A DNA stretch of 64,000 nucleotides from the NCBI GenBank assembly GCA_963785235.1, contig CAWAUM010000001.1:224001-288000 (forward strand), given 5' to 3'. Shown piece by piece: positions 13,494 through 53,800 of the stretch. Each line of letters starts with the position of its first letter. Position 1 is the first letter of the stretch. Position numbers and translations under genes: made by a program. The notes under the pieces were generated by a model, which saw only the letters and a program-made list of their open reading frames with translations, ran no database searches and was not told where the DNA came from. The stretch is from an uncultured delta proteobacterium (GTDB lineage Bacteria; Desulfobacterota; Desulfomonilia; UBA1062).

Positions 13494-14531
13494 TCAAGCA
13501 AAAACGCCCGACATCCTTTTCTCGATGGCCTCCGCTTCATTCACGATCCGATCCAGAAGCTCCTTGACCGATGGCTCGTCATTGATCAAGCCGCCGCACT
13601 GACCCACGGGCAGGATCCCCTTTCCAAGGTCACCTTCTTCAGTGGCCAGCTGGAAGGCCTTGGAGGCGTTTGCCAGATACGCGAACTGCATGGAGGTCTT
13701 CCAGCCTGACAGCAGGACACCGATGAAGAGCTTGATGAAGGGCAGACGCAGCGACTTGGCAATATCCTGAGCATTGAAGAATGCTGCGGGCAGGTTCAAG
13801 CCTTTCTTTTTGGCGCGCTGGGCCGTCTCGGTATCCAAAACCCGGCACCAGAGCCCGTCGATGCGTTTTGAGTACAGGGTTTGGGCGGTATCCATCTTGA
13901 TGGAGAGATCTTTGTAGTTTCTGTGCAGAGGGCTTTCCTTGGTGGTCATAAGCCTGGTCCCCATGGCGACACCTTCGGCGCCGAGCGCGATCGCTGCGGC
14001 CAGGCCCCGCCCGTCTGCTATGCCGCCTGCCGCAACCACAGGGATGGTCAGGGTATCAACAAGGCTCGGTATGAGGCAGAATGTGGTGATGAATTCACCG
14101 TGGGCCGCCGCCTCATTACCCGTTGCTATTACGGCATCGCATCCATAATCCTGGGCCCGCTTGGCGTGACGTGCGGTTACTACGGTGGCCACAACCTTGC
14201 CGCCGTATTTGTGGGCTTCCTCTACAATCCAATCCCCCTTGCCCAGGGCGAAGTTGATCACCGGGACCTGCTCTTCTAAAAGAACCTTTGCAGACTCCTT
14301 GGCGCCGGGAAACAGGAGCGATGCGTTGGCACCGAAGGGCTTGTCCGTGAGCTTGCGGATCTGTTTAATAGCCGAGCGGGTCTGCTCCTTCTCCAGGGGG
14401 CCTGTGGCGAGTATCCCCAGACCGCCTGCATTTGAAACGGCAGCCACCATCTCGGGTACGCTGATCCAGCTCATTCCGGAAAGGAAGATAGGGTAGTCAA
14501 TGCCCATCATTTCGGTGATCCTTGTCTTCAT
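13494..14531 (-). CDS. Nitronate monooxygenase / FabK-like enoyl-ACP(CoA) reductase family flavoprotein
   Basis: MKTRITEMMGIDYPI, AVSNAGGLG, G.EAAAH, PVVAAGGIADGRG, GVAMGTR. Confidence 0.9.
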   Translation of the reverse strand: MKTRITEMMGIDYPIFLSGMSWISVPEMVAAVSNAGGLGILATGPLEKEQTRSAIKQIRKLTDKPFGANASLLFPGAKESAKVLLEEQVPVINFALGKGDWIVEEAHKYGGKVVATVVTARHAKRAQDYGCDAVIATGNEAAAHGEFITTFCLIPSLVDTLTIPVVAAGGIADGRGLAAAIALGAEGVAMGTRLMTTKESPLHRNYKDLSIKMDTAQTLYSKRIDGLWCRVLDTETAQRAKKKGLNLPAAFFNAQDIAKSLRLPFIKLFIGVLLSGWKTSMQFAYLANASKAFQLATEEGDLGKGILPVGQCGGLINDEPSVKELLDRIVNEAEAIEKRMSGVFA

Positions 14532-14562
14532 AATGCCCTCCAGGTAGGTTTGTTAGGAATGA

Positions 14563-14591
14563 ACTATAAAGTATTACTTCATTCTTTACAA
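14563..14591 (-). promoter_or_regulatory. Sigma-70 promoter of the FabK-like/MerR operon with a palindrome in the spacer
   Basis: Minus strand TTGTAA-17 nt-TATAGT; spacer contains AAGTAATACTT. Confidence 0.55.
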
Positions 14592-14680
14592 TAAAAAAAT
14601 ATCAAGAGTGAATTGTTCTCACTGTGAAAAAGAGGTTGTCCTTGAGATACCCCTGCACAGCAGCAAAAAAGGCAAAGAAG

Positions 14681-14751
14681 AAAATTGGCCCGTTCAAAAC
14701 ATGGATCTTGGTGAAACCAAGATCCATGTTTTGAACGGGTAAGGTTTTTTC
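14681..14751. repeat. Palindromic REP-like element family B, copy 1
   Basis: 23-bp perfect IR 14689-14711 / 14717-14739; reverse-complement homolog at 18261-18331. Confidence 0.8.
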
Positions 14752-15013
14752 TCCCCAGGTATATAGTTTTCTGGAAGTTATTAGGAGAAGTTTTCTTCAG
14801 GAATTCCTTCTTTGCGAAAAGGGCACCCTAATGATAGAGGTTGGTAGACACTTTATCCAAGGAGGCATATGCATGTCAGGAGCCATCCTTGTAATAAGGA
14901 GAATATCCCCCTTGAATGGGCATTGTATGAATCGCACGCCATCCAGGCCAAGGCCTTTGAATGTAAATCCAGGCTTTATGCCGACAGGTATATCTCCTGC
15001 GGGGACTGAACAC

Positions 15014-15532
15014 TTGAGTGCCCCGGTACCGCGCCTGCCCAGGCTGATTGAATCAGATCCCCGAGCACCGCAGGTTCTGTGCATGCTCAGCGCAAACACA
15101 AGGCTGCTGTGGAAGGAGGGTGAGATCGAGGTGACGGTCGCCAAGCTCAGTCCAGAGCTGGAAACGGCCTTGCGGTGTGCCCATAATGCCGGACAGGTGG
15201 TCCAAGGGTTGGAGAGCGCGGAGCGCAGACTTCTTCTTGAAGAGCGGGGGCTGCGTCTGGCTGATAAGAAAAGCAGCGTGCAGCGCGGTGAGCGTGTTTC
15301 GCGCCTGCTGATGATGTCCGACGACGGAGCCGAGCGCTTTTATCGCAAGGTGGAGTCGCTTCTGCGCCGGCACGGGCCGCGTATGCTCGCAGTACGTCTT
15401 GAGGTGGATGCTGCCACCCTGGGAGAACTGATCTTCGGCAAGGGGCGTCTTGCCCGGCTGCTGATGCTCGAACACAAGGAGGCAGTCAGCGCAGTGCTCC
15501 TGGCTATGGCCGGCCGTGCCGAGGGAGCATGA
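15014..15532 (+). CDS. Hypothetical protein with L7Ae/L30e-like sequence pattern
   Basis: Probable TTG start after GGGGA; GQVVQGLE...RLLMMSDDG.ERF.RKV...LGELIFGK...LLML follows the L7Ae/YlxQ pattern. Confidence 0.55.
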   Translation: MSAPVPRLPRLIESDPRAPQVLCMLSANTRLLWKEGEIEVTVAKLSPELETALRCAHNAGQVVQGLESAERRLLLEERGLRLADKKSSVQRGERVSRLLMMSDDGAERFYRKVESLLRRHGPRMLAVRLEVDAATLGELIFGKGRLARLLMLEHKEAVSAVLLAMAGRAEGA

Positions 15533-18260: not shown

Positions 18261-18331
18261 GAAAAAACCTTACCTGTTCAAATCATGAATCTCGGCTTCA
18301 CCGAGATTCATGATTTGAACAGGCCAATTTT
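18261..18331. repeat. Palindromic REP-like element family B, copy 2
   Basis: 23-bp perfect IR 18273-18295 / 18301-18323 with the same flanks as copy 1, inverted. Confidence 0.8.
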
Positions 18332-18371
18332 TTTACCCTGCTTAATCGCAAAATCTAGATTAAAATCCCCC

Positions 18372-18421
18372 TTGCCCTTCCTGCCAGTAAGGTATATATT
18401 GTCAGCTGGCAATACCACCAG
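18372..18421 (+). promoter_or_regulatory. Sigma-70 promoter and FadR/GntR-type operator of the GRE operon
   Basis: TTGCCC-17 nt-TATATT followed by TGGCAATACCA (18407-18417), similar to the TGGTnnnACCA FadR-subfamily box. Confidence 0.55.
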
Positions 18422-18441
18422 CCACATACAATGGAGACTCC

Positions 18442-19182
18442 ATGAAAGATATCCTGAAGCCGCTTCATTCAGAGAGCCTGGTAGAAGTGTTCATATCGCG
18501 CTTCGAAAATCTCATCCTCACCGGCAAGATCGCCATCGGCCGGAAGTTGCCCTCGGAGCGCGAGCTGGCCCTGCAGTTGGGTGTGAGCAGGCCCGTGGTG
18601 CACGAGGGGCTTGTGGATCTGGCTGCCAAGGGCCTGGTCACCATGAAGCCGCGGGTGGGGACAATGGTGAATGACTACAGGAAAGAGGGATCGCTCAGTA
18701 TCCTGAACTCCATCATCAACTACCAGCAGGGCTCGCTTGACGAGGACCTTCTGGAAAGCCTGCTGGCCACGAGGCTCCTGGTGGAGACCGAGAACACCCG
18801 GCTCGCTGCGGCCAATCGCACCGAAGAACACGTAAAAGAGTTTCGAGTGATCCTTGAGGCGGAAGAAGCCATTGGCCTAAAAGATGTGAAAAAGATCACT
18901 GCGCTTGACTTCAGCTTCCACCATACCATCGGCATGGCCTCGGGCAATGTCATTTACCCCATGCTCATCAACTCGTTCAAGCCCGTGTACATGAATTTCA
19001 CCGGCATATTTTTTTCAGAACCCGCCAATGTAGCAGAAACGATTCAATTCCACCGCAGGCTCGTGGAAGCCATAACGGACAAGAACGCCGTGCAGGCGGT
19101 AAGCATCATGATCGAGACACTGCACCACGGCGAAATGCATGTGCGCACAATCCTCAACCAGCCCAAAAGGAGAAGGCCATGA
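18442..19182 (+). CDS. GntR/FadR-family transcriptional regulator
   Basis: KLPSERELALQLGVSRPVVHE HTH; FCD domain D.SFH...SGN. Confidence 0.93.
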   Translation: MKDILKPLHSESLVEVFISRFENLILTGKIAIGRKLPSERELALQLGVSRPVVHEGLVDLAAKGLVTMKPRVGTMVNDYRKEGSLSILNSIINYQQGSLDEDLLESLLATRLLVETENTRLAAANRTEEHVKEFRVILEAEEAIGLKDVKKITALDFSFHHTIGMASGNVIYPMLINSFKPVYMNFTGIFFSEPANVAETIQFHRRLVEAITDKNAVQAVSIMIETLHHGEMHVRTILNQPKRRRP

Positions 19183-21695
19183 GTACCTCGGCAGCACTCA
19201 AAAGCGTTCACAAGATCAAGGAACCGAAAAATCTGTCCAAGCGCATAACCTGGCTGCGGGATTATTACTACAAGGGCGTGGATCGACCGTGGAACAACGA
19301 GTTCACTGCCTGGACCACAGGCACGCCCTGGGATGTGCAGTTCGATGAGATGACGTTTTACATCGTGCCCGAGACCTACCCCTTCATGCAGACCTTCCGC
19401 TCCTGCATGCAGCAGGCGGCCAGGCCTGTGAAGCTGCACCCCGACTTCTGGAAGTGGAGCCTGGTTGAGCGCAAGGCCTGGTTCGTCAGGGAGGTGATGG
19501 TGAACTATGTGCCCGCCGAGATCCTGCCGGGCGACCTCATTGCGGGGGGCCGCTTCAACCTCCAGACGTCCAAGTGCTGGACAAAACAGGAGGCAAAGCT
19601 TCGCGACAGGCTCATCTACGGGAAGAAAGGCGCGCGTGCATCCATGAAGTGGTTCCACGACCACGGCTACGGCAACTCGGGCGCCACGAGCGGCCACCTC
19701 ATCCCGGGGTATGAACGGGCCTTGAAGATCGGATGGAGGGGCATATACGAAGACCTGGATAATCGCTACAGCATGCTGCCCCAAAAGGACAAGAAGGGCA
19801 AGAAAGGCGCCCAGCTGAGCGCCATGATGACGGCCGCCACCACGGCGCGCGACCTGGCAGCCAAATATGCCGCGCTGTGCGAGCGTATGGCCCTCGATGA
19901 GAAAGAGGCAGTGAGGCAGGGCGAGTTGCAGAGAATGGCAGCCATCCTCAAGCGTGTCCCCTGGGAGCCGGCGGTCACCTTCTGGGAGGCCGTGCAGGCC
20001 CTGTGGATCACACACATGCTCGTCATGAGCGATGAGAACTATCCCGGGCCCGGAGTTTCCTTCGGCCGTATAGACCAGTATCTGCTGCCCTACTGGCAGC
20101 GGTCCATTGCAGGCGGCATGGAGAGGGAACTGGGCAAGGAGATCATGAAATGCCTCTGGGTGCATGCCAACACGGTGTACGACGCCATGATCCGCGTGGG
20201 TGACAATGGCATCACCGCGGGTTACGGCCAGCTCATAACGCTCTCGGGCGTGGGTGAAAACGGCAATGATATGACCAATGACCTGACGTATGCCATGCTG
20301 GAGGTCATCGACGAGATGACCCCCATGCTGGAGCCCAAACCCAACGTTCGCCTGCACCGGGGCACGCCGGAGACACTGCTGGACAAGGTGGTGGACATGA
20401 TCTCGGTAAGCCAGGGCGCGCCTTTCCTGCTGAACTTCGACGAACGGTCCATGGCAGGGATGCTCCGCGAGGCGAAAAAGGCCGGGGTGGAACACCTCAT
20501 CAACGAGACCAACGTGCACGACTACGCGCCCGTGGGCTGCCTGGAGAACACCATGCAGGGCAATGACCGCTCCGGCACGGTGGACAACAACCTGAACCTC
20601 TTAAAGGCCGTGGAGCTCTCCCTGAACGACGGGAAGGACTTCTTTGATTTTACCGACCCCATAACGGGGAAGAAGGAGAAGGTGAAACAGGCAGGCCCGA
20701 AGACCGGCGACGCTAAAGCATTTGCAACCTGGGACACATTCTGGAAGGCCTATGCCGAGCAGACGCGGTTCATCGTGCAAAGGTGTGCAGCGCTCTATGA
20801 GCTCTCCGAATCCATCCGGGCCCGGTTCTGCCCCACGCCGTACCTCTCCTGCCTGGTGAAGGGGTGTGCGGAAAAGGGGCTCGACGTCACCCAGGGGGGC
20901 GCTGAGCTGGGCTTCACAACCCTTGAGGCCGTGACCTTCGCCACCACGGTGGACTCGCTGCTGGCCATCAAGGACCTGGTGTTCGACAAAAAGGAATGCA
21001 CCATGGCCGAGATGATCGAAGCCCTCATGGCCAACTGGGATGGCAATGAGAAGCTGCAGGCCAAGGCCAGGTTCAAGGCCCCGAAATACGGGCGCGACGA
21101 CGATGAGGCCGATGCCATGGCTGCAAAGGTTATGGAGCTGTGGTGCGAGGAGACCTGGAAGTACAGAACCATCTCCACAAACCGCCGGTTCCGGCCTGGT
21201 ATGCTGAGCTGGAACTACTGGGTGGGCGACGGCTTCATCCTGCCGGCAAGCCCGGACGGCAGGCCCAAGGGGAGGTTCCTTTCAAATGCCATCTGCCCGG
21301 TGAGCGGGGCGGACATCAACGGCCCCACCGCCAATGTGAACTCCGTGGGCAAGGCCATGGGAGGAAAAGACCTGCAAGGCCCGGGGGACTATAAGGGATA
21401 TTACAACTGCCTGCCCAACGGCGCGAGCCACACCATCACCATCAACCCCTCCCTGCTGAAGAACCCGGAGCACCGCTCAAAGTTCAAGTCATTCTTGAGG
21501 GGATACGTGGAAAACGGGGGCAGCGCGCTGCAGATCAATATCCTTGATGCGGATATGCTTACAGACGCCCAGAAGAGGCCCGAAGACTACCGGTCGCTCC
21601 TGGTGAGGATAACAGGGTACAACGCATACTTCACGAGCATCGGAAGGGAGCTGCAGGATGAGGTCATCGCCCGCCTCAGCCATGAGTCGCTGTAA
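19179..21695 (+). CDS. Glycyl radical enzyme 1 (PFL superfamily, substrate unknown)
   Basis: SFGRIDQYL, Cys loop PVGCLEN, Gly loop LLVRITGYN. Confidence 0.92.
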   Translation: MSTSAALKSVHKIKEPKNLSKRITWLRDYYYKGVDRPWNNEFTAWTTGTPWDVQFDEMTFYIVPETYPFMQTFRSCMQQAARPVKLHPDFWKWSLVERKAWFVREVMVNYVPAEILPGDLIAGGRFNLQTSKCWTKQEAKLRDRLIYGKKGARASMKWFHDHGYGNSGATSGHLIPGYERALKIGWRGIYEDLDNRYSMLPQKDKKGKKGAQLSAMMTAATTARDLAAKYAALCERMALDEKEAVRQGELQRMAAILKRVPWEPAVTFWEAVQALWITHMLVMSDENYPGPGVSFGRIDQYLLPYWQRSIAGGMERELGKEIMKCLWVHANTVYDAMIRVGDNGITAGYGQLITLSGVGENGNDMTNDLTYAMLEVIDEMTPMLEPKPNVRLHRGTPETLLDKVVDMISVSQGAPFLLNFDERSMAGMLREAKKAGVEHLINETNVHDYAPVGCLENTMQGNDRSGTVDNNLNLLKAVELSLNDGKDFFDFTDPITGKKEKVKQAGPKTGDAKAFATWDTFWKAYAEQTRFIVQRCAALYELSESIRARFCPTPYLSCLVKGCAEKGLDVTQGGAELGFTTLEAVTFATTVDSLLAIKDLVFDKKECTMAEMIEALMANWDGNEKLQAKARFKAPKYGRDDDEADAMAAKVMELWCEETWKYRTISTNRRFRPGMLSWNYWVGDGFILPASPDGRPKGRFLSNAICPVSGADINGPTANVNSVGKAMGGKDLQGPGDYKGYYNCLPNGASHTITINPSLLKNPEHRSKFKSFLRGYVENGGSALQINILDADMLTDAQKRPEDYRSLLVRITGYNAYFTSIGRELQDEVIARLSHESL

Positions 21696-21799
21696 ATGAA
21701 TATTTTCCTAGGGGGCTGTCAGCATCAGTTGCATGGGGTGGTGTTGGCAGTCCCTGCCCCCATGGCGCCGGGGTGAGGGGCCCATACAAGGGAAAAGGC

Positions 21800-22804
21800 A
21801 TGACAAGCGCAGAAGACAAACACCAGGGAACAATCTTGCGCATCCAGCGCATGTCCACCGAGGACGGGCCCGGCATCAGGAGCACGGTCTTCTTCAAGGG
21901 ATGCCCGCTCGCGTGCATATGGTGCCATAACCCGGAGAGCATCTCACGCGGGCCCCAGGTGCATTGGGTGAAGTCCAGATGCATCGGCTGTAGAGGCTGC
22001 ATAGAGGCATGTCCGAAAGGGGCGCTTGCTTTTGGGGACAGTGGTATAACCATCAATCGATTACTGTGCGACTCATGCTCCGAGTGTGTTCAGGCCTGCC
22101 CATCCACGGCCATGGAGGCGTACGGCGAGGTCTTTTCCACCCACGATCTGGTGCGTGAGGTCATCAAGGACAAGGTCTATTTCCAGAAGTCAGGAGGCGG
22201 TGTGACACTCTCGGGCGGTGAACCCACCATGCAGCCGGCCTTTACCAAAGAGCTGCTTGCATCTTTGAAGCAAGAAGGTGTCCATACCGCGCTCGACACC
22301 TGCGGGCAGTGTTCGTGGGGAACCCTTGAGGCCCTGCTGCCGCAGGCGGACCTTGTGCTGTACGACCTCAAGGAGATCGACCCGGAAAACCATAAGCGGT
22401 TCACCGGCATTACCAACAAGGGTATCCTGCATAACCTCAAAATGCTGGGGCACTTCATGAAGGATCGAGGCATGCCGGGCGATCTCTGGATACGCACCCC
22501 TTTAATACCGGGCTGCACGGCAACGCCGGAAAATATCAAAGGCATCGGCGCCTTCATCAAGAAGCAGTTGCATTCAGTGGTAAGCAGGTGGGACCTCTGT
22601 ACCTTCAATAACCTGTGTACCCACAAGTATGATGGGTTGGGGCTCGACTGGAGCTTTAAGAGGGCAGGGCTCCTTGATGAGGATCAGGCTGATCACCTGG
22701 TTACCCTGGCCATGTCCTCGGGTGTCGATCCGGGAATTGTTCACCTGAGCGGGCCCATGAGAACACTTCCCCCCTCTCCCCTGGCGGGAGAGGGCCTAAG
22801 GTGA
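21800..22804 (+). CDS. Glycyl-radical activating enzyme (radical SAM, ferredoxin insert)
   Basis: EDGPGIRSTVFFKGCPLACIWCHNPE; CIGCRGCIEACP and CDSCSECVQACP; GGVTLSGGEP. Confidence 0.95.
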   Translation: MTSAEDKHQGTILRIQRMSTEDGPGIRSTVFFKGCPLACIWCHNPESISRGPQVHWVKSRCIGCRGCIEACPKGALAFGDSGITINRLLCDSCSECVQACPSTAMEAYGEVFSTHDLVREVIKDKVYFQKSGGGVTLSGGEPTMQPAFTKELLASLKQEGVHTALDTCGQCSWGTLEALLPQADLVLYDLKEIDPENHKRFTGITNKGILHNLKMLGHFMKDRGMPGDLWIRTPLIPGCTATPENIKGIGAFIKKQLHSVVSRWDLCTFNNLCTHKYDGLGLDWSFKRAGLLDEDQADHLVTLAMSSGVDPGIVHLSGPMRTLPPSPLAGEGLR

Positions 22805-22810
22805 GGGGGG
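22769..22810. repeat. REP-like CCCTCTCCC...GGGAGAGGG...GGTGAGGG element overlapping the activase 3' end
   Basis: Hairpin ccctctccc-ctggc-gggagaggg; related hairpin at 40561-40592 and a partial copy near 21750-21785. Confidence 0.6.
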
Positions 22811-22873
22811 AGTGCATATTGACGGCAGTGTCGTCTCCCTGGTTCCGGATATGAGTAGTGATGGAGGTAAAAT

Positions 22874-23722
22874 ATGAAGAAGACCTATACACGCTTTGAT
22901 GCCCTCGACATGAAGCAGTTCGAGCCCGAGGCAAAGGTGGGACTTATCGCCACGGTAAACCCTGAAGGCCTGCCGCATGTCACCCTCATTACCGCGCTGC
23001 AGGCAAAGACGCCTGAGAAGCTTATCTGGGGCCAGTTCTCCGAAGGCAGGAGCAAGGAGCACGTGAAGACCAATCCGAAAACAGGCTTTGCCATCATGAC
23101 CATGGACAAGAGCCTGTGGCGTGGCAAGGCGCTCTACACCCACAGGGCCAAAAGCGGTGATGACTACGAGATGTTCAACCTGAAGCCCATGTTCCGATAC
23201 AATGCCTATTTCGGCATTCATACCGTGCACTACATGGACCTCTTGGAGACCTACGGTAAGGAATCTTTGCCCCTTGCCCGGATCGGCCTGGGTTCTGTCC
23301 TGGCCCTGGCGGGGAGGTCCGCCGTTAAGCCGGGGCATGGAAAACGCATCTTAAAGCCCTGGGCCGAGGCCCTGTTCAAGAGGCTCGATACCATAAAGTT
23401 CATCTCAATTGTTGGGGAGGGCGGATTCCCGGTGATCATCCCGCTCATCGGCTGCCAGGCGGCAGACAGCACCAGGCTCGCCTTTTCACCGCTGGCCTAC
23501 GGCGAGGAGCTCAAAGCAATAAGGCCGGGGGCAACCGTTGCCGTATTCGGCCTTACCATGGAGATGGAGGACGTGCTGGTCAGGGGGACCTTCAGCGGGT
23601 TTGAGAGGCACCGGGGCATTACGCTCGGGTGTGTGGACATCACCTGGGTTTACAACTCCATGCCGCCCAAGCCCGGCCAGATCTACCCGGACTCGGAGCT
23701 TAAGCCTGTAGTGAATTTCTAA
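22874..23722 (+). CDS. Tandem pyridoxamine 5'-phosphate oxidase-like (split-barrel flavin-binding) protein
   Basis: GLIATVNPEGLPHVT...SKEHVKTNPK and a second repeat KFISIVGEGGFPVII; GGAGG RBS. Confidence 0.75.
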   Translation: MKKTYTRFDALDMKQFEPEAKVGLIATVNPEGLPHVTLITALQAKTPEKLIWGQFSEGRSKEHVKTNPKTGFAIMTMDKSLWRGKALYTHRAKSGDDYEMFNLKPMFRYNAYFGIHTVHYMDLLETYGKESLPLARIGLGSVLALAGRSAVKPGHGKRILKPWAEALFKRLDTIKFISIVGEGGFPVIIPLIGCQAADSTRLAFSPLAYGEELKAIRPGATVAVFGLTMEMEDVLVRGTFSGFERHRGITLGCVDITWVYNSMPPKPGQIYPDSELKPVVNF

Positions 23723-23737
23723 AGAGGAGAAATCAGT

Positions 23738-26117
23738 ATGATAGCCCATTCGGCACCCAAGAAACCAGATGACAGGTTAACCCCCCCCGAGCGCTTTACA
23801 CGCATCAAGCATGCACTGCTCTCTTCGTGTGTGCATCTCTGTACCGAGCGGGCGCTGCTCATCACCGAGTTTTTTAAAAAACATGACAATAAAAAAGAGC
23901 CTATGGTGATCCGTAAGGCCAAGGCACTGCGCTACCTGCTCCGGAATAAGTCGGTGAAGATCTTCGATGATGAGCTCATTGTCGGCAATGTGGGCGGCTT
24001 TCGGAAATCGGCCATCATGCAGCCTGAACTCTCCGGGGTAGTCATGAGCGAGGAGTTACTCTGGATGGGCTCCCGCAAGACAAATCCCTATCCTATTTCC
24101 TGGGCGGACAGGCTGAAGCTCTTCTTGAAGGTCATCCCGTACTGGTCCTTCAGAAATATGAACACCCGTGCATTCAAGTGGTACAGCCCGAAGCTTATCC
24201 GTTTCGTGCTGGCACAGATCAGCGCCTCCAACTACCTCATCAATGAGTCCGGAGGCATAGGTCACTTCCTGCCCGATTACGGCAGTATGATAAGGCTCGG
24301 CATCAAAGGCTACAGGGAAACCCTTGATGGGTCGAAGTTCGACCTCCATGCAGCAGCGCTCATCGCCTGCGAGGGCCTGGCAGACTATGCAAAAAGGCTC
24401 TCTGCTGAGGCTGTGAGGCTCGCATCCTATGAAAGCTCGCCTGCAAGAAAGCAGGAGCTCATAGAGATTGCGCGCATCTGCAAAAAGGTGCCCCTGGAGC
24501 CTGCCGAGACCCTGCACGAGGCCCTGCAGGCCCTGTGGCTCACCCACATGGCCGTATGCCTTGAAGGGATCAACTCCGCCGTCTCCTTTGGGAGGATAGA
24601 CCAGTACCTCTACCCGTACTACAGGGCCGATATGGCAGCCGGCAGGATCGATGCTGACAAGGCCCGGGAGCTGCTTCTTTGCTTCTCCGCCAAGACCACC
24701 GAGCACATGTTCCTCCTTTCAAGCAGGGTCAGCGAGTACCACGGAGGATACCTGGTGGCCCAGGCCGCCACGGTAGGAGGCATGGACAAGGACGGCAATG
24801 ATGCGGTGAACGACCTTACCTACCTGTTCCTCGATGTCATGGAACTGGCGGGGCTGCGCGACCCTAACTACATGGCAAGGATCCATACCTCTTCTCCCGA
24901 GGAGTATGTGCGCCGGGCCGTGGATGTGGCATGCAAAGGGAGCAATGTGCCGGGCCTGTTCAATGATGAGGCCACCATCGCATCGCTCACCTCCCATGGC
25001 TACGCCCTCGAAGAGGCCCGCGACTATGGGGTTGTGGGCTGCGTGGAACCGACCATCCCGGGAAAAAGCTTCTGCTCTACTGATGCCGCACTCTTCAACC
25101 TGCCCTTGTGCCTGGTCCTGGCCCTGAACAAGGGCATGCGGCCGGATTCCCGGTTCAGGGTGGGCGCTTCGACACCCGATCCGGCTACATTCAAGACCAT
25201 GGAGAACCTCATCGATGCCTTCAGGGCCCAGGTGGCATTCATGGTAAGCCGCCTGATCAAGGATATCCAGATAATCGAAGGGGCCAACCGCGATTTTCAC
25301 CCCACCCCGTTTTCCTCCATGCTGGTTAAAGGCTGCCTGGAGAGCGGCCGCGACGTGACGTCGGGCGGCGCTCAGTTCAACTCCAGCGGTATCCAGGGCG
25401 TGGGTGTGGCGGACGTGGCTGATTCCCTTGCAGCTATCGAAGACGCGGTGTTCACCCGTAAGTCTTATACCCTGACTCGAGGTGATCGAATCCATGGGGA
25501 AGAACTTTGCGGACAATCCGAAACTCGGTGCGGCGCTGGTCTCGGCCCCGAAGTTCGGAAACGACAACGGCATGCCTGAGCGATACGCCGACCTTGTCGT
25601 ACATATCTTCCACGACGCCCTGATGAGGTATCGCAACACACGCGGCGGCCCCTATATCTCCGGGTTTTACTCATCCACGACCCATGTGGGCTTCGGAAGG
25701 AGGACGCCTGCCCTGCCAAGCGGCAGAAAGGCGGGAGAGCCCTTTGCGGCAAGCATGGGGTGCTGCAACGGGCGCGACAGGAACGGGCCCACAGCCCTAC
25801 TCAATTCGGTGGCTGCCGTTGATTCAAGGCTGTCCCCCAACGGCTATGCACTGAACATGCGCTTCGATGTGTCCTCATTGAAAGGTGAAAAGGCCCTTTC
25901 TACCATGACCGCCCTTACCAGGGGCTTCTTTGCCCAGGGCGGCATGGAGATGCAGCTCAATGTGCTCGACCCGGCGGTCCTGGCCGATGCCCGGTCGCAC
26001 CCCGGCAAGTACCCCGGTATCGTGGTGAGGGTTGCCGGGTACTGCGCCTATTTCGATGATCTTCCTGACACCGTGAAGGACGAGATCATCAACAGGACCA
26101 GGATGGAGCTGGGGTAG
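23738..26117 (+). CDS. Glycyl radical enzyme 2 (PFL superfamily, substrate unknown), frameshift near 25480
   Basis: ERALLITE, SFGRIDQYLYPYY, Cys loop VVGCVEP, APKFGND, Gly loop IVVRVAGYC (ORFs 23738..25579 and 25482..26117). Confidence 0.92.
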
Positions 26118-26355: not shown

Positions 26356-27372
26356 TCACCCGAGATACTCGCGATACACCGACGAGAACCTCCTGAGCTC
26401 TTTATAATCCATAACCGTGGACATGGGGAGGTTCGTCTCCTCCACCCCGGCCTCCCTTGCCGAAGCAACAGGATTAAGGCCGCCCAGCAGTACGATGCCC
26501 ATCTTATTAACGTCAACACTCACCTGGCAGACGCTCTCACCCATCTTGCCCATGGAGATCACCGGCTGCATGTCAACGCCTTTTAACAGTTCAATGACCT
26601 CTTCCACGCCGTCCCTGCACACCCCGGCTACTTCGCTGAAGTTAGCCAGGATCTTTCCCTCACCCCTTCTCAGAACCTCCCGCATGGCGGTCATCCGGGC
26701 ACTGATGAAGGCCTCCGATGGATCCAGAGAGGTTCCGGAGTAGTGGATCAGCTCTACAAAACGCATGGGTTTATGTTCACTTACCTGGAGTATGCCACCG
26801 AATTTTGACTCCAGCGGGATGCCGCGTTTAAGAAGCATACCGGAAAAAACGATGCTGCACACCGTTGCGAAACCGATGCACCCCGGCGGTACGTGCACAT
26901 CGCCCAAAAAGGCCCCTTCGGGCGCCACTGCAACCAGGTTGCTCACGCAATAGCCCTTTTCAAAGGCCGACTTCATCCCCTTGAGCGCATCCTTGAAGCT
27001 CTCCTTGGGAAAGAACGAGACATTGCTGGGGATCAGGCCCTTGCCTGCGGTTGCATCAAAGGTGGTCTTGTAGGCAAGGATCTCCATACGTGAGATGCAG
27101 TAGCCGACCTTGTCCTGGACCCGGGCGTTGCGTAACTCTTCTATGCCCTTTTCCGTAATGAGCCTGCCGACCCTTCTCCCGATAAACCGTGTAAGCTCAC
27201 GCTGGTCCATGAACTGAAGGTGGTAGCGGACGGCACGCTCGCTCAGGTTGATCCCGTATTCCTTCATCCTCCTTGCAATGATGCGTGCGCCGAGCGGTTG
27301 CCCGGCATGATTGAGGATCCTCAGGATCAGGATGCTCTTCCTTTCCATCTCATCAAAAGTAAACATGTTCAT
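26356..27372 (-). CDS. nrpR: NrpR-family regulator (wHTH plus one NRD/DUF128 domain)
   Basis: ILRIL...PLGARIIA...LSERAVRYHL; TVCS, FGGIL, YSGTSLDPSE, GGLNPV. Confidence 0.85.
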   Translation of the reverse strand: MNMFTFDEMERKSILILRILNHAGQPLGARIIARRMKEYGINLSERAVRYHLQFMDQRELTRFIGRRVGRLITEKGIEELRNARVQDKVGYCISRMEILAYKTTFDATAGKGLIPSNVSFFPKESFKDALKGMKSAFEKGYCVSNLVAVAPEGAFLGDVHVPPGCIGFATVCSIVFSGMLLKRGIPLESKFGGILQVSEHKPMRFVELIHYSGTSLDPSEAFISARMTAMREVLRRGEGKILANFSEVAGVCRDGVEEVIELLKGVDMQPVISMGKMGESVCQVSVDVNKMGIVLLGGLNPVASAREAGVEETNLPMSTVMDYKELRRFSSVYREYLG

Positions 27373-27492: not shown

Positions 27493-28155
27493 ATGGGCCG
27501 GATCAGAGACAATGTGTTGAGGCTGCTCTCGGAGATACCACAGGGCATCACCGTGGTAGCGGCCGCCAAGTCGAGAGACGCTGCGGAGATCCTTGAGGCC
27601 GTTGAAGCGGGCATCACCGCTGTGGGCGAGAATTATATGCAGGAATCCCGGACAATGATCGAGGCCATCGGTCCGAAGGCTTCATGGCACTTCATAGGCC
27701 ACATCCAGAAGAACAAGGTCAAATACATCGTGCCGCTCTTTGACATGATCGAGACAGTTGACTCCATGGAGCTTGCATCCATGATAGACCAGCACGCCGC
27801 CAGGTATGGCAAGGTCATGCCCGTGCTCGTCGAGGTGAACATCGCCCATGAGGCACAGAAACACGGTGCCATGCCCGAGGATGTCCCCGGTCTTATCCGG
27901 CAGTTGAGCAGCCTGAAAAATATCCATGTGAGCGGGCTCATGACCATGGGGCCCTTTGTGGAAGACCCGGAGGAACTCAGGCCTTACTTCAGGCAGGCCA
28001 AGGTCCTCTTCGAGGAAATCAAGGCATTGAATATAGCGAATGTGACGATGGACTACCTCTCCATGGGCATGAGCGATTCCTTCCAGATAGCCATCCAGGA
28101 AGGGGCCACAATGGTCCGCATCGGCACCAGTATCTTCGGAGAAAGGCCGCACTGA
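27493..28155 (+). CDS. yggS: PLP homeostasis protein YggS
   Basis: AAAKS, GENYMQE, WHFIGHIQKNK, GLMTM, LSMGMSD, GATMVRIGTSIFG. Confidence 0.95.
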   Translation: MGRIRDNVLRLLSEIPQGITVVAAAKSRDAAEILEAVEAGITAVGENYMQESRTMIEAIGPKASWHFIGHIQKNKVKYIVPLFDMIETVDSMELASMIDQHAARYGKVMPVLVEVNIAHEAQKHGAMPEDVPGLIRQLSSLKNIHVSGLMTMGPFVEDPEELRPYFRQAKVLFEEIKALNIANVTMDYLSMGMSDSFQIAIQEGATMVRIGTSIFGERPH

Positions 28156-28165
28156 ATTTATCCTC

Positions 28166-28892
28166 TCAACAAATCTTAACAGGCATCCCTACCTTTGCAC
28201 CGATGATATTGGCCGCATTCCCTCGGTTTGCCGCTATCTCGATGGTGGAGGCGCTGCCGCAGATGAGGCCGACAGAACCGGAAGGGATGTCTGCAAAGGT
28301 CTTTGCGCAAACCATAATGACCTGACCATTCAATTCCAGCGAAATATCGGGCTTGGCAAGTTCACAGATGATGTTGGTGATCACATTCCCGAAGGTGTCT
28401 ATGTGTACGACCATGGGGTTCGTTACTTCAAGAGATACCGGTGCAGCCGCTGGCTATGCCCAGCTCATGTATGTCATCCCCCGCCAGTATCCTTGCCACG
28501 ATCAGCGCAAAGATATCCCTGCCGTGGAAGGTTGGCGATACGGCCCCCTGGGGCCTCCAGGTGATTTCAATGACCGTCTCGGCCGGGAACAGGAACGAGA
28601 AGACCCCGTTATCAGGCCCCACAAAGATATGACCATCCTTTTTTACGTAAAGGATGCCGCGCCCGGTCCCAACGCCGGGGTCAACCACGGCCAGGTGTAT
28701 GGTGCCGGCGGAAAAAAACCTGAAACTGCTTGCCAGCAGCCACCCCGCAGATATGATGCCGAAGGCTTCAATTTCGTGGGTGATGTCGATGATCCTGGCT
28801 TCCGGTGCCTGGGTGAGTATGACCGCCTTCACCTGGGCCACATAGGCATCCTTCAGGCCGAAATCCGAGATAAAGGTTATGGTGGGGATCAT
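28166..28892 (-). CDS. SAM hydrolase / SAM-dependent halogenase family (DUF62), frameshift near 28435
   Basis: SDFGLKD.YV, VVDPGVGT.R, GPDNG, SPTFHGRDIF; C-domain HIDTFGNVITN. Confidence 0.88.
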
Positions 28893-29008
28893 GCCTTCTA
28901 TAGTACGCCAAACCAGGCGATGGTCAATATGCACCTAAAGGGTATTGAGGTATAACCTTCATCAGTCACCCCTTGCATGGCAGGCAATCTTGTTTTATAT
29001 TCAACGAG

Positions 29009-29759
29009 ATGATAATCAATGAACAGAGCTGTTTCTATCCTGACAGTTACGTATACTTCGACCCGGCATCGAGGGGATTCCAAACCGAAGACATCTTTCT
29101 GGATGACCGCATCCACTGCTGGTTCATACGGCCCCAACCGGTCAATGCGAAGCAATCACTGATAGTCCACCTCCATGGCAATGCAGAGAACATGACCTCC
29201 CACATCACAGGCGCCATGTTCCTGCTGGAAGCTGGGCTATCCTATTTTGGCATTTGACTACAGCGGCTACGGCAGGTCGAAGGGAACACCGACCCTGGCA
29301 GGGATACAGGACGACGCCAGAGTAGTCTTTGGACACATATTCGCAAACCCCCATACGTTCGGCAGCTCAGTCTTCGGGTTCGGCCAGTCCATGGGGGCAT
29401 ATACGCTGGCGCGGGTCCTGCCGGATTTTCCAGGGCTCAAGGGCGCCATATTAGAGGCCGGATTGCATTCATTCCATGCGTTGTTCTGTGAGGCCTATCC
29501 TGCGCTCGAATGTACCGTGCCTGACAAAGGCTATTCGGCCCTTGATACGCTGCCTGGCAGTGCCGTACCCAAGCTCTTTATCCACGGGACTGCCGATGGC
29601 GTTGTGCCCTTTTCCCACTCTATACGGATGCACGAGGTTGCAGCAGAACCGAAAGATATCCTTATCCTGGACGGTGTCGGCCATATCGATGCCTTTATCT
29701 CCCGGCATGCCATGACCTATCGGGAGAAGATCCAGCAATTTCTGAAACAGAACAGTTAG
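29009..29759 (+). CDS. Alpha/beta hydrolase, frameshift near 29245
   Basis: FYPD, HGNAEN, FDYSGYGRSKG, GQSMG, IHGTAD.VVP, GVGH. Confidence 0.85.
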
Positions 29760-30484: not shown

Positions 30485-32597
30485 CTATTGCAGGCCTTCC
30501 CTTTCCAGAGATTCACTTTGCGCTATGAGCTTATAGATATCCAGGATCAGGGCCACCGTGCCGTCGCCCAGGATGGTAGCCCCTGATACCCCCTCGATGT
30601 TCTTCATGAGGTTGCCCATATTCTTGATCACGGTCTGGTGCTGGCCGATCACCTTGTCCACCAGGAAACCCACCCGCTTTTCGCCGAGCTCGGTGATGAC
30701 TACCTGTTCGATGGGTGGTGTATCCGACTTCAAGCTGAAGGTTTCACGCAAAGAGATGTAAGGGATGATCGCATCCCTCACCCTGATGAGGTGACGACCA
30801 TGGGAGTGCCTTCTCTCTGCATCGGACAGTTCCACGCACTCCACGACTGCGTTCAAGGGGAGAACATAGGAGTCGTTATCAAGGTTCACGAGCAGTCCGT
30901 CAATAATGGCCAGTGTCAAAGGAAGCTTCAAGGTGATGGTGGACCCACGGCCCTTGGCGCTTTGAACCTCAACAGATCCGCCCAGGCCTTCGATGCTGTT
31001 TCTGACCACATCCATGCCGACGCCCCTTCCCGAGACGCCGGTCACGCTTGAAGCCGTAGAAAAACCAGGCGCGAAAATGAGATCGTACAGTTCGCGTTCA
31101 GTGAGCGCAGCATCGGGGCTGATGATGCCTTTTTCTATGGCCTTTGCCCTGATGGCATCTCCACCCAACCCAGCGCCGTCGTCGGCGATACTGGATCAGG
31201 ACATAGGCACCCGAGTGCTGGGCCGAGATCTTGATGATACCTTGAGCGGATTTACCAGAGGCGATTCTGATCTCCGGCGCCTCGATGCCATGATCGATGC
31301 TGTTGCGGATGAGATGGACGAGCGGGTCTGAAAGCTTGTCGATGACGGTCTTGTCGAGTTCGGTTTCCTCGCCTTCCATAATGAAGCCAATGTCCTTGCC
31401 AAGCTCGGTGGACAGGTCACGGACCAGGCGCTTGAACTTGGCAAAGGTCGTCCCGATGGGCAGCATCCTGATACCCATGGAGATATCGCGGAGCTCTGCG
31501 CTGAGCCGTTCCACCTCCTCGGCAATGGCTATGAGGTCCGGGTCGCTCTTTGTTGCCGAGAACTGGGTAAGTCGTGCCTGAACCGTCACCAGCTCGCCCA
31601 CCAGGTTCACCAGGGCATCGAGCCTTGGTGCCGGAACGCGGATGCTGGATGTCTCTTCTGCTACGGCACGTTTTTTATTTTGTGTCCTGATCTGCTCCTG
31701 TTCGGACAGTGCGGATCTGATCTCGGCCTTGTTCACCACCCCGGTATCAAGGAGCACCTCGCCGAGGCGCTTCTGGCTCTTCAGCGCTTTATCCAGGTCC
31801 TCCTTAACGAGGGCGCCGCGCTCCAGCAGGATCTCGCCGATCTTCTTGTCTGGTGCAGCAACATTATCGGGTACTGGCACATGAATGCTCTCTATGGATA
31901 TATCGCTTGAGTCCTCTACAAAGATGAACACATCCCTGATGATGTTTATATCGCTTGTGGTTGTCAGGATAATGTCCCAGCTCGTATAGCAGGCCTCAGG
32001 GTCCATGTCGGCAAGGTCCGGCAGATCATCCATATTGCAAATGAGAGTGCTTTCGCCAAGACCTGCAAGCTCGTTCAGGAGTGGTATGGGATTTGTCCCG
32101 TTGGCAAAAAGGTCTTTGTGAGGTCGGAAACGGATACGGTATGTAGTCAATAGCCCCGAAGCTTTCTCTTTGTTTTCTTGTATTGTCGGCGCATCAGGTT
32201 CTCTTTCAGGCGTTCCCGCTTCAGAGGGGAGATATGCCTTGAAGCTCAGCATAAGTTCGCTTGTCTTTGCCTCGGAAACAGTGTTCAGACCCTGGGAAGC
32301 GCCCAGCATGTCCCTGATCTGGTCGCAGGAGGCAAGCGTCAGGGTGATGAGGTCGGCGGTGACCTTGAGCTTGGAGTCCCTGATGAGGTCATAGATCGTC
32401 TCGATGGTGTGGGTGAATGTTGCAATATCATCGAAACCGAACATGGCCCCCGATCCCTTGATGGTATGCATGGCCCGGAAGACCTTTCCTACAATATCGA
32501 GGTCTTCCGGATGCTGCTCCAGCTCAAGGAGGGAGTCCTCAAGGTTTGTAAGGAGCTCGTATGCCTCTTCCCTGTACAGATCTTTCTGGTTTTCCAT
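30485..32597 (-). CDS. cheA: Chemotaxis histidine kinase CheA with MshEN-like insert, frameshift near 31190
   Basis: FRAMHTIKG (Hpt), LVNLVGELV, HLIRNSIDHGIE, FAPGFSTA..V..VSGRGVGMDVV, CheW-like C-terminal domain. Confidence 0.95.
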
Positions 32598-50897: not shown

Positions 50898-53800
50898 TTA
50901 GTATGTCTTGCTGTCAATTCCTTGAAGGCATCTCTGGATAGCACACGTAATGGCGCTCCTGGTAAAGGGCTTTTCCATATATTCCTGGATCCCTTGCGCA
51001 AGGGCCTCGTCAGGGCAGATTGTTTCACTGTAACCGGTCATGAGGATAATGGGTGTGTCAGGTCGTATCGTGAGGATCTCGCTTGCGAGTTGTGAACCGG
51101 TGATGCCGGGCATGGTCTGGTCCGTGATGACGAGGTTGAATTTTTCCGGGGCCGATTGAAAGAGCGCCAGTGCCTCGGTGCCTGAAGACAGGCCGGTGAC
51201 GTTATAGCCCAACTGAACCAGCATGGTCTCTAGATAATGGAGGATAATTTCCTCATCATCTACCAGCAGGATGGTCTCGCCGTTTCCCGGTGCAGGTATT
51301 TCTTCAGATTCTTCAAGTTCCTCCGGCTCCCCGATAAAAACAGGGAGATATACATCGAACGTGCTGCCTTTTCCCATAGCCGAACTCACGAAGACCGCAC
51401 CACCAAGGCTTGTAACGATACCATGGACCGTAGACAGGCCGAGGCCGGTGCCCTTGCCCTTTTCCTTGGTAGTGAAAAAGGGGTCGAAAATACGTTTGAT
51501 CGTCTCTGAGTCCATGCCGCAGCCCGTATCGCTCACCGTGAGCCTGAGGTGTTCACCTTCACAAAGGGGCGGGTGTTGGGATGAAAAGAAGGCATCGAGG
51601 TATGTCTGCTCCAGTGATACGGTAAGGATTCCGCCATGAGAAAGCATGGCATGGTAGGCATTGGTGCACAGGTTCATGATTATCTGGTGGATCTGGGTGG
51701 AATCTGCAAGGACAAAGCCGATAGAGGGGCTTATACGATCAGTGATGGTAATGGTGCTGGGGATGGATGACCTCAGCAGTTTCAGTGACTCCTTGATGAT
51801 GTAATGGATTTTAACAGGGCTTCGCTCGGTCTCCACCTGACGGGAAAAGGTGAGGATCTGCTTGACCAGCTCCTTTGCCCTGCATCCTGCATGAAAGACC
51901 TCCATGACGCCCTCATAGGCCATGCTGTCTTTGGGAACCTCATCCAACAGCAGTTCGGAATTGCCGATGATGGCGGACAGGATATTATTAAAGTCGTGTG
52001 CTATGCCGCCTGCGAGCGTTCCGATGGCCTCGAGCTTCTGGGAGCGCATCAGCCGGGCCTCGTAGACGGTGCCGTTCCTCCTCGGCCTGCTTTTTTTCCG
52101 TGATGTCGTCGGCGATGCCGGCAAGGTAGACCACAGATCCCTGATCATTGCAGATGGCCGAACGCCTGTTTCGTATCCACCTGATGGACCCATCTTTTTT
52201 TACATAGCGGAACTCGTATTCATGTTCGATGTCCTTTGTGTTTTCGGCCATGGACAGGACTAGCCCGATATCATCGGGGTGGATGAGTTCGAGCAATAGG
52301 CGAGGGTTCTTATAGAACTCTTCGCAGGGTATGCCGGAGATCCGTTCGAAAGCCGGGCTGACATAAATAACCTTGGTCCAGTCGGGCAGCGTGATCCAGA
52401 AGACCTCAGGGCTGGACTCGGCCAGCTTCCTGAAGCGCTCTTCGCTTACCTTGAGCTTTTCCTGGGCCCGTCTGAGCTCGGTAATATCGTGTATCAGGGA
52501 GAAGATGTAGGAAGTGCCTTCCACTTCTACAAGGGTTGCCGAGAGGATGACGGACCGGATATCACCGGATCTGTTCTTGAGTTGGACCTCGGTATTCAAA
52601 ATGTTGTTTCCGGCGATCAGCTCATCCATAAACCGTAAACGGTCATCCCTGTTCACCCAGACGCTCAGCTCGGCAGTGGTGCGGCCTATGATCTCTTCCT
52701 TGGAATATCCTGACCATGCCACAAAGGAGGTATTGGCATCGATAATCCTGCGGTTTGCAGGGTTTATGATGCACATGGGGTCAGGGCTTGAATCGAAGGC
52801 AGCCTGGAATTTCTTCTCGGAAAAAGTCACGAGTTTCTCTGCACGCCTGTGCTCGGTAACATTGATACCGATGCCGAAGATGAATTCAAGTTCGCCATTA
52901 TGCTTAAAGACCGCCTTTCCCTGCCGCTGAACACTCAGGGTTCTCCCGTCTTTTGTCATGACCCTGTTCTCATGCACTATGGGGATCTTGGTGGAGATCA
53001 TCTTGTCTGTGGCTTCCTGCAACAGGGTATGGTCTTCTTCCGGGATGAATTTTTCAAAGTAGTCCGTGCCTACAATATCTGCGAGCTTATATCCCAGGGC
53101 GTTCAACATGGCTTCGTTCATGAAGATCGTCTTGCCGGCAGGATCCACGGCGTCGTAGAAGGCCGGCGATGTCTGGATGATGGAGATGATGAAATCCCGT
53201 TCTTTCTTCAGCTCCCGCTGGGTGCGGAGTCGGGCCGTGATGTCCCGGGCTGAGCCGCGTACGGCGATCGCGTTTCCCCCGGTGTTGGTAACCAGGGAAT
53301 TTCGATACTCCAGGACACGTTCAACCCCGTTCTTGGTTATGATGGTAAGGAACCCTTCGTCAAAGCCTTTGTCCATTACGTTACGAATATAATTCTCAAA
53401 GCGGTTTTTATGCCTTTGGGGCAACAGGTCTTTCACCGAAAGGCTGGTTATCTCGTGCTCTGAGTAACCGGCGTTTTTCTCGAATGCCAGGTTGGTCTCA
53501 ATGAAATAGCCATCGAGATCGTGGAGATAGAGATAGTCCGAGACGTTGAGGAAGATATCGCGAAATTTAGCTTCACTCTTTTTTAAGGCATCTTCGGTCA
53601 GCCTGCTGTCGGTTATGTCGCGCAGCGTTTCGATGGCGCCCATGATATTTCCGTCTTTATCATAGATCGGACCTGCCTTTATCCAGAGGTATCTTTTCGT
53701 GGGCAGACCTATGGATTCGGCATAGATGCTGTCTCCCTGCCATAGGATGGACGTGTAGTTCTTCTCAATTTCATGGTCACTCTTGAGCACCAGGTCAACG

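Follow-up and report, generated by a model that had tools for sequence, protein, structure and literature searches.

The operon and its conserved core

The subject of this analysis is a 64,000-nucleotide stretch from the genome of an uncultured delta proteobacterium (assembly GCA_963785235.1, contig CAWAUM010000001.1, positions 224,001 to 288,000), hereafter the window, and in it a set of five genes on the + strand between positions 18442 and 26117. In order, they encode a FadR-type GntR regulator, a glycyl radical enzyme (GRE1), a GRE-activating enzyme (the activase), a protein of two tandem split barrels (PNPOx/HupZ-like; the partner), and a second glycyl radical enzyme (GRE2) (Table 1). A first-pass annotation of the window had proposed five co-oriented genes in this order with one activase among them; the layout is borne out by the open reading frame (ORF) and domain calls, and the single activase is confirmed. 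We consider it reasonably probable that the cassette is an autoregulated operon organized around a widespread three-gene module, consisting of a CxE-type GRE1, its activase, and a tandem split-barrel subunit of GRE1, with GRE2 as an add-on. GREs are oxygen-sensitive enzymes that perform some of the hardest anaerobic reactions, and whole GRE clades are still without a function (PMC13450708, section 7, in the accessible text). The pairing of GRE1 with a split-barrel protein is the more unusual feature of this operon; should the partner prove to be a true subunit, it would represent a new type of GRE accessory protein.

The evidence for the module comes from two comparisons, one among the relatives of the source genome and one anchored on the partner (one genome per species; the best 80 of 192 confirmed loci). 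Of 24 genomes from the same family, 21 have an orthologue of GRE1 (70-94% identity); of 16 from the next family, none has one. The order GntR-GRE1-activase is kept in all 17 of the relatives' loci, far beyond chance, and the partner follows in 16 of them, the 17th ending at the end of its contig. Of the 80 partner-anchored loci, 69 include GRE1. In the remaining 11, the contig extends less than 2.5 kb upstream; the L095 lineage carries a 3.5-kb insertion between activase and partner, and an insertion of this type accounts for the longest upstream stretch among these 11. In 65 of the 69 loci, GRE1 and the partner have the activase gene between them; in the other 4 it is missing, and the partner still lies beside GRE1. 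Measured against the proteins of the window, median identity falls from 77% (GRE1) through 69% (partner) to 59% (activase). By position and conservation, the partner appears to track GRE1, not the activase.

The conserved unit is GRE1-activase-partner, accompanied frequently by the regulator, whereas GRE2 is lineage-specific. Neighborhood conservation, which the first-pass annotation had put forward as a check on its reading, holds for the three-gene unit and not for GRE2, which follows the partner in only 10/17 relatives' loci and 18/80 partner-anchored loci. No further gene family accompanies the module in more than 10 of the 80 loci, beyond GRE1, activase, partner, GntR, and an NrpR-type neighbor; minor neighbors are housekeeping or lineage-specific genes (GDH, tRNA synthetases, riboflavin genes, a sigma-54 regulator). 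The claim that shells, transporters, and aldehyde or alcohol dehydrogenases are lacking is also upheld: a search of the genome (completeness 93%) found no bacterial microcompartment shell family, and a scan of 11 flanking ORFs, from 13.5 to 31.2 kb, showed neither a transporter nor an aldehyde/alcohol dehydrogenase.

Table 1. Positions in the window of the genes and regulatory features of the cassette
Feature	Position	Strand	Details
Upstream terminator hairpin	18262..18334	+	34-nt arms, 88% complementary, 5 nt between; T-run after
Sigma-70-type promoter	18372..18400	+	TTGCCC-17-TATATT; 9/12 consensus matches
FadR-type GntR operator	18401..18423	+	GTCAGCTGGCAATACCACCAGCC; directly behind promoter, overlapping transcription start region
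GntR/FCD regulator	18442..19182	+	Pfam
GRE1	19179..21695	+	838 aa; Pfam PFL-like 408 bits, Gly_radical 77.1 bits
Activase	21800..22804	+	TIGR02494; ORF opens at 21773
Tandem split-barrel (PNPOx/HupZ-like) partner	22874..23722	+	282 aa
GRE2	23738..26117	+	two frames: 23738-25579 and 25482-26117
Net +1 indel splitting GRE2	25474..25478	+	…KSYTLT / EVIESMG… here; …YTLSEVI… in relatives

Two glycyl radical enzymes of the CxE type

The catalytic motifs of both enzymes are present as the first-pass annotation had read them. GRE1 has Cys454 and Glu456 in a GCLE loop and Gly813 in RITGY, with C454-L-E456 invariant in 28 of 28 members of its family; GRE2 has GCVE and RVAGY. Both pass the Gly_radical cut-off of 22.2 bits (83.7 bits for GRE2), and GRE2 scores 513 bits with the Pfam PFL-like domain. 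A CxE loop defines the eliminases and isomerases among GREs (PMC13450708, sections 5.6 and 5.7, in the accessible text). By this loop, GRE1 and GRE2 are both of the eliminase/isomerase type. Neither is a pyruvate formate-lyase (PFL), as had been argued at the outset, because each has a single-Cys CxE loop with no Cys-Cys pair; TIGR01255 (PFL) gives 90.7 bits for GRE1 and 142 bits for a GRE2 orthologue, against a cut-off of 994.

Neither enzyme reaches any of the NCBIfam equivalogs, whose cut-offs are 1000-1150 bits: GRE1 scores 275-365 and GRE2 453-487. This includes CutC (TIGR04394, cut-off 1050; 322 for GRE1 and 480 for the GRE2 orthologue), HypD (NF043068, cut-off 1100; 346 and 487), and HpsG/HpfG/IslA (NF048009 and NF048011, cut-off 1000; 358-365 and 461-467). 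The enzymes of this last group bind the sulfonate through an Arg/Gln/Arg anchor (PMC13450708, in the accessible text). Both also fall below the cut-off of 678 for the TIGR01774 subfamily, GRE1 at 416 and GRE2 at 623 bits. The best sequence match of both in the PDB is Archaeoglobus fulgidus PFL2 (2f3o; 305 bits for GRE1 and 503 for GRE2), followed by CutC and glycerol dehydratase (GD). At these distances, the description of both GREs as uncharacterized stands.

His164 of GD protonates the leaving hydroxyl (PMC13450708, in the accessible text). Aligned with it are His173 of GRE1, which is invariant in the family, and the His of the GIGHF motif in GRE2. Other family-invariant motifs of GRE1 are ENYPGPGVSFGR, CLENTMxGNDRSGTVDNN, and MLSWNYW. 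At the remaining GD pocket positions, which we take to be H281, S282, D447, Y339, and Y640, GRE1 has P, G, V, a deletion (at Y339), and L (at Y640, within the invariant MLSWNYW motif), and GRE2 has S, A, and D at the first three, the last of these kept. At the position that presumably corresponds to CutC Asp216, both GREs carry His.

The AlphaFold2 (AF2) model of GRE1 (pLDDT 72.7) aligns with solved GREs over residues 15-832, in keeping with their ten-stranded barrel. Its Z scores of 25-26 tie among HypD, PflD, GD, CutC, and propanediol dehydratase (PD), compared with 18.8 for PFL. The N-terminal 170 residues are aligned by no sequence method, and we considered a new N-terminal fold or domain; this was rejected, as the structural match of the model to solved GREs already begins near residue 15. 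As modeled, the GRE1 N-terminus is divergent in sequence, not in position.

A split-barrel protein predicted to dock onto GRE1

The AF2 model of the partner (pLDDT 87.2, pTM 0.86) consists of two split barrels in tandem. Foldseek matches it with probability 1.0 to HupZ, 2htd (a putative PNPOx), 3f7e, and 3in6, at 14-19% identity; the matches at this probability include an F420 reductase, FMN-binding proteins (from D. vulgaris, and Swol_0183), and the prFMN maturase PhdC. Known members of the split-barrel group bind FMN, F420, or heme. A search of the PDB with the single partner sequence returns nothing significant, while the family profile finds HupZ at E 1e-3. PNPOx_N is matched weakly, and in domain 1 only, by 33 of 33 family members (E up to 0.1; best 7.5e-9).

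The family is well conserved, with 75% mean column identity over these 33 sequences and a set of invariant polar residues in domain 1 (K21, T27, T40, S60, K61, R83, H116, and H119). It is also widespread. With an E-value limit of 1e-5, the partner has 3615 relatives among clusters made at 90% identity; it occurs in metagenome-assembled genomes (MAGs) labeled Desulfomonilia, Syntrophales, Syntrophobacteria, and Spirochaetota, and an Atlas cluster of it is commonest in Promethearchaeota. Full-text literature searches and the accessible text of a 2026 review of the field (PMC13450708) describe no eliminase-type GRE with a PNPOx-like partner, and a flavoprotein-like partner of this kind goes unmentioned in the review; the suggestion of an undescribed radical pathway agrees with that.

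To model a complex, GRE1 (residues 1-715) and the partner were each given their own family alignment. Three runs gave ipSAE values of 0.85, 0.87, and 0.87, compared with 0.00 in all three controls, two with an unrelated partner and one with an unrelated large chain. Among solved complexes, 116 of 157 reach the mark used to call a complex, as do 2 of 215 mismatched pairs; this calibration is rough for inputs with custom alignments such as these. The runs have at least 88% of their contacts in common, with partner pLDDT of at least 87. On the GRE1 side, the predicted interface comprises residues 29-129, in the divergent N-terminal region, together with 336-345, 494-497, and 679-686, the last stretch following the invariant SWNYW strand; on the partner side, it includes 54-58, 105-116, 228-234, and 261-270. 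Partner residues in the interface are conserved above the rest of the protein (0.87 vs 0.70), a difference reached by 0.0004 of random draws. The PDB searches made here returned no complex of a GRE with a split-barrel protein, and it therefore seems unlikely that the prediction passes from model memory. Taken together, the models support binding of the partner to GRE1, with docking on the sequence-divergent N-terminal region.

Could the partner instead serve the activase? GRE activases need a one-electron donor, and the partner might be a dedicated flavin donor for this one, a flavodoxin stand-in that reduces the [4Fe-4S] cluster for cleavage of S-adenosylmethionine, and not a subunit of GRE1. 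Its gene comes directly after that of the activase in the 65 loci noted above, and small redox proteins that bind FMN, among them the D. vulgaris FMN-binding protein and Swol_0183, have a similar fold. We nevertheless regard this role as unlikely: the protein is predicted to sit on GRE1, with clean controls, and its persistence in the four loci that lack the activase gene, combined with a conservation above that of the activase, fits a subunit better than a free electron donor of the activase. Nor is a partner of the split-barrel kind reported for the genome's other 6 activases, for which no search was made.

A second alternative, which we think quite unlikely, makes the partner a separate enzyme that acts on the substrate or product of GRE1 (a flavin- or F420-dependent reductase, an oxidase, or a tautomerase) and forms no stable complex. 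PNP oxidase, F420-dependent reductases, and the prFMN maturase PhdC all belong to the split-barrel family, the many invariant polar residues of domain 1 would suit a ligand site, and with no aldehyde-processing enzymes nearby, some downstream step is needed. The passing complex prediction argues against it, and many of the invariant partner residues fall within the predicted interface. An enzymatic role is, in addition, compatible with a complex, so that this alternative differs from a GRE1 subunit mainly in degree.

GRE2 as a lineage-specific addition

GRE2 begins 15 nt past the stop codon of the partner gene. The first-pass annotation correctly reported the gene and its motifs but only hinted at its reading in two frames. 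The frame is changed at the indel listed in Table 1: loci L054 (a conspecific MAG, 95-99% protein identity) and L042 (a relative at 89-92%) read …TATAC(A/C)CT--CTCAGAGGTG…, where the window reads …TATACCCTGACTC-GAGGTG…, a net one base more in the window. Contigs from three metagenome runs of two studies, 95-99% alike, likewise have a net one base fewer at this site. In L054, GRE2 is a single frame of 792 aa with no stop, and of the 10 cassette-linked orthologues from the relatives, 8 read through in a single frame and two (L030 and L037) are split; in L037, the partner gene is split as well.

The assembly itself seems to carry many small indel errors. Within about 17 kb of the window that are syntenic with genome G002, four indels change the reading frame, and 4 of the 9 GRE genes and 2 of the 7 activase genes of the source genome are in pieces. 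None of the indexed sequencing runs holds half of the locus words (best share 0.39). Because the conspecific locus, the metagenome contigs, and most orthologues are intact, and because the assembly is rich in indels, the break in GRE2 is very probably an assembly indel, and the 'broken' GRE2 of the window should not be read as a pseudogene. The three further indels relative to G002 lie at window positions 27972-28928, 28952-29756, and 50925-54048, and the genes affected by indels include a Hydrolase_4 gene (28973-29257 + 29247-29759) and a gene of 1074 aa.

The 18 partner-anchored loci that carry GRE2 belong to MAGs titled Desulfomonilia, Syntrophaceae, Thermodesulfobacteriota, Deltaproteobacteria, or (doubtfully) Bacteriovoracaceae. 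GRE2 is lacking in the other 62, of which 8 have less than 1 kb of sequence downstream. Orthologues of GRE2 at 59-64% identity lie detached from the cassette in genomes G022, G023, G028, and G015, and the three contexts of readable length show no GRE activase next to them. One of these genomes, G028 (97% complete), has the GRE2 orthologue with no orthologue of GRE1. GRE2 is a paralogue from a clade like that of A. fulgidus PFL2, a lineage-specific addition behind the module.

This distribution bears on the reading offered by the first-pass annotation, in which GRE1 and GRE2 perform two sequential radical steps or form a heteromeric GRE that is served by one activase. The two genes do share the operon and its operator, with the short 15-nt spacing, and the arrangement recurs in the relatives' and partner-anchored loci counted above; moreover, GRE1 is present in 18 of 20 genomes with a GRE2 orthologue, although these genomes are kin and not independent. 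Yet GRE2 is absent from most modules, its orthologues occur detached, and the two enzymes are only 33-36% identical. The N-terminus of GRE2 is also canonical, aligning to glycerol dehydratase from residue 13, and is without the divergent docking region of GRE1. Since GRE2 lies outside the conserved unit and G028 has no GRE1 orthologue, it is unlikely that the two enzymes form a heteromer or an obligate pathway of two steps.

Two side observations concern the relatives of GRE2. In G022, a 343-aa protein with 4Fe-4S and CCG (HdrD/GlpC-like) domains is encoded 13 nt upstream of the detached orthologue (L122:4279-5310) and could serve GRE2-family enzymes as a redox partner. Locus L028 (genome G010) has, at 14039-15389, a third GRE that is 46% identical to the C-terminal part of GRE2 and has its own activase; it lies a few kb downstream of the cassette, past NrpR and YggS.

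The activase and the other glycyl radical enzymes of the genome

The activase scores 316.3 bits with TIGR02494 (cut-off 174.35), as expected of a GRE-activating enzyme, and has the radical SAM motif CX3CX2C, as CPLACIWC, and two extra ferredoxin-type Cys clusters, CIGCRGCIEACP and CDSCSECVQACP. Its start is likely the ATG at 21800, behind the purine-rich site AAGGGAAAAGG, which matches the start in the relatives. The genome has 9 PFL-like GRE loci for 7 activases; GRE2 and one other GRE have no activase of their own. As all other GREs but one have a neighboring activase, the simplest reading of the position of GRE2 is that it borrows the activase of the cassette, which is plausible from gene order.

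The other GRE and activase loci of the genome (G000) are C13:42637-46011, C12:148998-150959, C7:106810-111417, C7:233225-236469, C7:241005-244479, C7:251497-254840, and C9:26970-30209. The GRE on C13, in two pieces, is the only one of the genome near a named family, HpfG sulfopropanediol dehydratase, for which a fragment of it reaches 944 bits against a cut-off of 1000; the others are unassigned. The GRE on C12 has 991 aa, with an N-terminal extension of 200 aa and no neighboring activase.

Promoter, operator, and regulator

A single promoter with a FadR-type box had been proposed for the operon, and both elements are found ahead of the regulator gene (Table 1). The promoter scan is at chance level overall; both hexamers are, however, conserved in position in same-genus relatives. 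Upstream of them, the hairpin is likely the intrinsic terminator of an HD-domain gene, insulating the operon. Downstream, the stop codon of GntR overlaps the start of GRE1 (ATGA).

The right half-site of the operator, ACCACCAGCC, is its best-conserved part. The core motif recurs ahead of gntR in all but one (L032) of 17 relatives, and in L031 the operator is the perfect palindrome GGCTGGTGGTAATACCACCAGCC. The core TGGTAATACCA, present in the relatives, fits what we take to be the box of the FadR subfamily, of the TGGTNNNACCA type. A genome-wide search that allowed up to 2 mismatches found only the operon's own exact site, and its 2-mismatch matches, three compared with two in a reversed control, are at chance level.

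The regulator protein scores 59.6 bits with Pfam GntR, 65.2 with FCD, and 68 with FadR_C, which places it in the FadR/FCD subfamily. It reaches no equivalog, FadR itself giving 93 bits against a cut-off of 189. It probably represses its own operon in response to a carboxylate, a type of ligand proposed because the protein belongs to the FCD domain family. GntR is found upstream of GRE1 in 36 of the 69 GRE1-bearing loci.

Neighboring genes

Directly downstream of GRE2, on the - strand, the window encodes an NrpR-type regulator (HTH_12 + NRD1_2; 26356-27372), followed by YggS at 27493-28155. The NrpR-YggS pair is a conserved downstream neighbor in the GRE2-carrying lineage, and NrpR is found in 17 of the 80 loci by clustering. 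A 227-aa ORF at 30485-31168 (- strand) has just two domains of a CheA kinase, HATPase_c and CheW, and is probably another gene cut by an indel.

Among the partner-anchored loci, an MFS transporter gene lies directly after the partner in L094, L096, L103, and L109, which are related; it is the only transporter seen beside the module. Six related loci from Syntrophales MAGs (L084, L092, L093, L095, L098, and L104) have a pyrroline-5-carboxylate (P5C) reductase gene at most 1-2 kb from the partner. In the HypD pathway, P5C reductase takes the product of the GRE. As all six loci belong to one lineage, the hint is a weak one.

A model for the operon

Gene content, conservation, the operator, the class motifs, and the fold of the partner are observed, and the contact between GRE1 and the partner comes from the model. 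On this basis, we propose the following sequence of events:

(i) The FCD-type GntR protein would act as a repressor on the operator that overlaps the promoter, and would be released by a small inducer that probably bears a carboxylate.

(ii) The activase would then place the radical on Gly813 of GRE1.

(iii) Within GRE1, Cys454 would carry the thiyl radical, Glu456 would act as the base, and His173, at the position of GD His164, would have an acid-base role. The reaction may be a 1,2-elimination or an isomerization of a hydroxylated substrate.

(iv) The split-barrel protein is predicted to remain bound to GRE1 as a subunit on the divergent N-terminal region, and would not be a free electron carrier.

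(v) GRE2, attached to the module by one lineage, would come under the same regulator and, most simply, the same activase.

Several observations weigh against parts of this model. For the complex, interface residues of GRE1 are conserved at background (0.78 vs 0.76, a difference reached by 0.32 of random draws), and ipSAE expresses the confidence of the model, obtained here with a GRE1 cut at residue 715, and so lacking the glycyl radical domain, and with shallow, unpaired alignments. The partner of the window scores 25.4 bits with PNPOx_N, below the gathering cut-off of 28.1. In the AF2 model of GRE1, pLDDT falls below 50 at the active-site loops 453-469, 675-718, and 810-825, and because these include the Cys loop and the Gly loop, no pocket can be read from it. 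A substrate is indicated neither by a second operator site in the genome nor by the gene neighborhood. GntR is absent upstream of GRE1 in 26 of the 69 loci despite room for it, so that the regulator falls outside the universal core. As for GRE2, the plausible sharing of the activase is read from gene order, and the break may, with lower probability, be a real frameshift private to this strain.

We also put forward a more far-reaching reading, which we hold to be improbable, in which GRE1 and the split-barrel protein form a new kind of two-component GRE. The partner would hold a flavin, deazaflavin, or heme where the GRE channel opens, and this cofactor would take part in catalysis. It could, for example, supply or withdraw electrons, so that a PFL-like GRE carries out a net redox reaction such as reductive dehydroxylation in place of a redox-neutral elimination, and orphan GREs of the GRE2 type would depend on the module for their activation.

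Comparison with known systems

Glycerol and propanediol dehydratases (1r8w/1r9d, 5i2g, and 9rco) resemble GRE1 in fold, with a Z score of 26.0 for the model and a root-mean-square deviation of 3.4 Å over 680-686 residues. They also share the CxE loop, the His at the position of GD His164, and a dedicated activase with extra Fe-S clusters. They differ in sequence: GRE1 is 24-25% identical to them, the PDB scores are 276 bits for GRE1 and 483 for GRE2, and the presumed GD pocket residues are changed in GRE1, with D447 kept in GRE2. A split-barrel partner is found in none of the solved GD/PD structures listed here, nor is one named in the accessible text of PMC13450708.

With A. fulgidus PFL2 (2f3o), GRE2 shares the loop after CxE, …SF(C/T)S(T/S)DAAL…, and GRE1 has the same ENY insertion ahead of the GxS strand, but no partner protein is described for PFL2. 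The function of PFL2 is debated, glycerol dehydratase and alkylsuccinate synthase having been proposed (PMC13450708, section 7, in the accessible text), and PFL2 therefore gives no substrate for the GREs of the window.

HypD, CutC, HpsG/HpfG, IslA/IseG, and the isomerases HplG, YbiW, and PflD have the CxE loop and the GRE fold in common with both enzymes, and their Z scores of 24.4-26.2 are a tie. What separates enzymes of the HypD, CutC, and HpsG type from those of the cassette is sequence, with equivalog scores of 275-365 bits for GRE1 and 453-487 for GRE2, far below the cut-offs.

A parallel for a GRE catalytic subunit with a co-encoded, tightly associated accessory protein is found in BSS and MASS, with their small subunits, and in HPAD, with its gamma subunit (PMC13450708, sections 4.2 and 7). 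There, the accessory proteins are small Fe-S or rubredoxin-like subunits on X-succinate synthases and decarboxylases, whereas the present cassette pairs a 282-aa tandem split barrel with an eliminase-type GRE. An unexplained PNPOx-like gene, LssP, is also noted in a limonenylsuccinate synthase operon (PMC12583861, in the accessible text).

Finally, the partner itself is most like the HupZ/COG3576/PNPOx-like proteins (5esc, 7kpz, 2htd, 3f7e, and 3in6), which have the fold of each of its halves, with TM-scores on the target of 0.60-0.74. Those proteins are single-domain homodimers with 14-19% identity to the partner, whereas in the partner two barrels are fused in one chain, the second of them invisible to Pfam.

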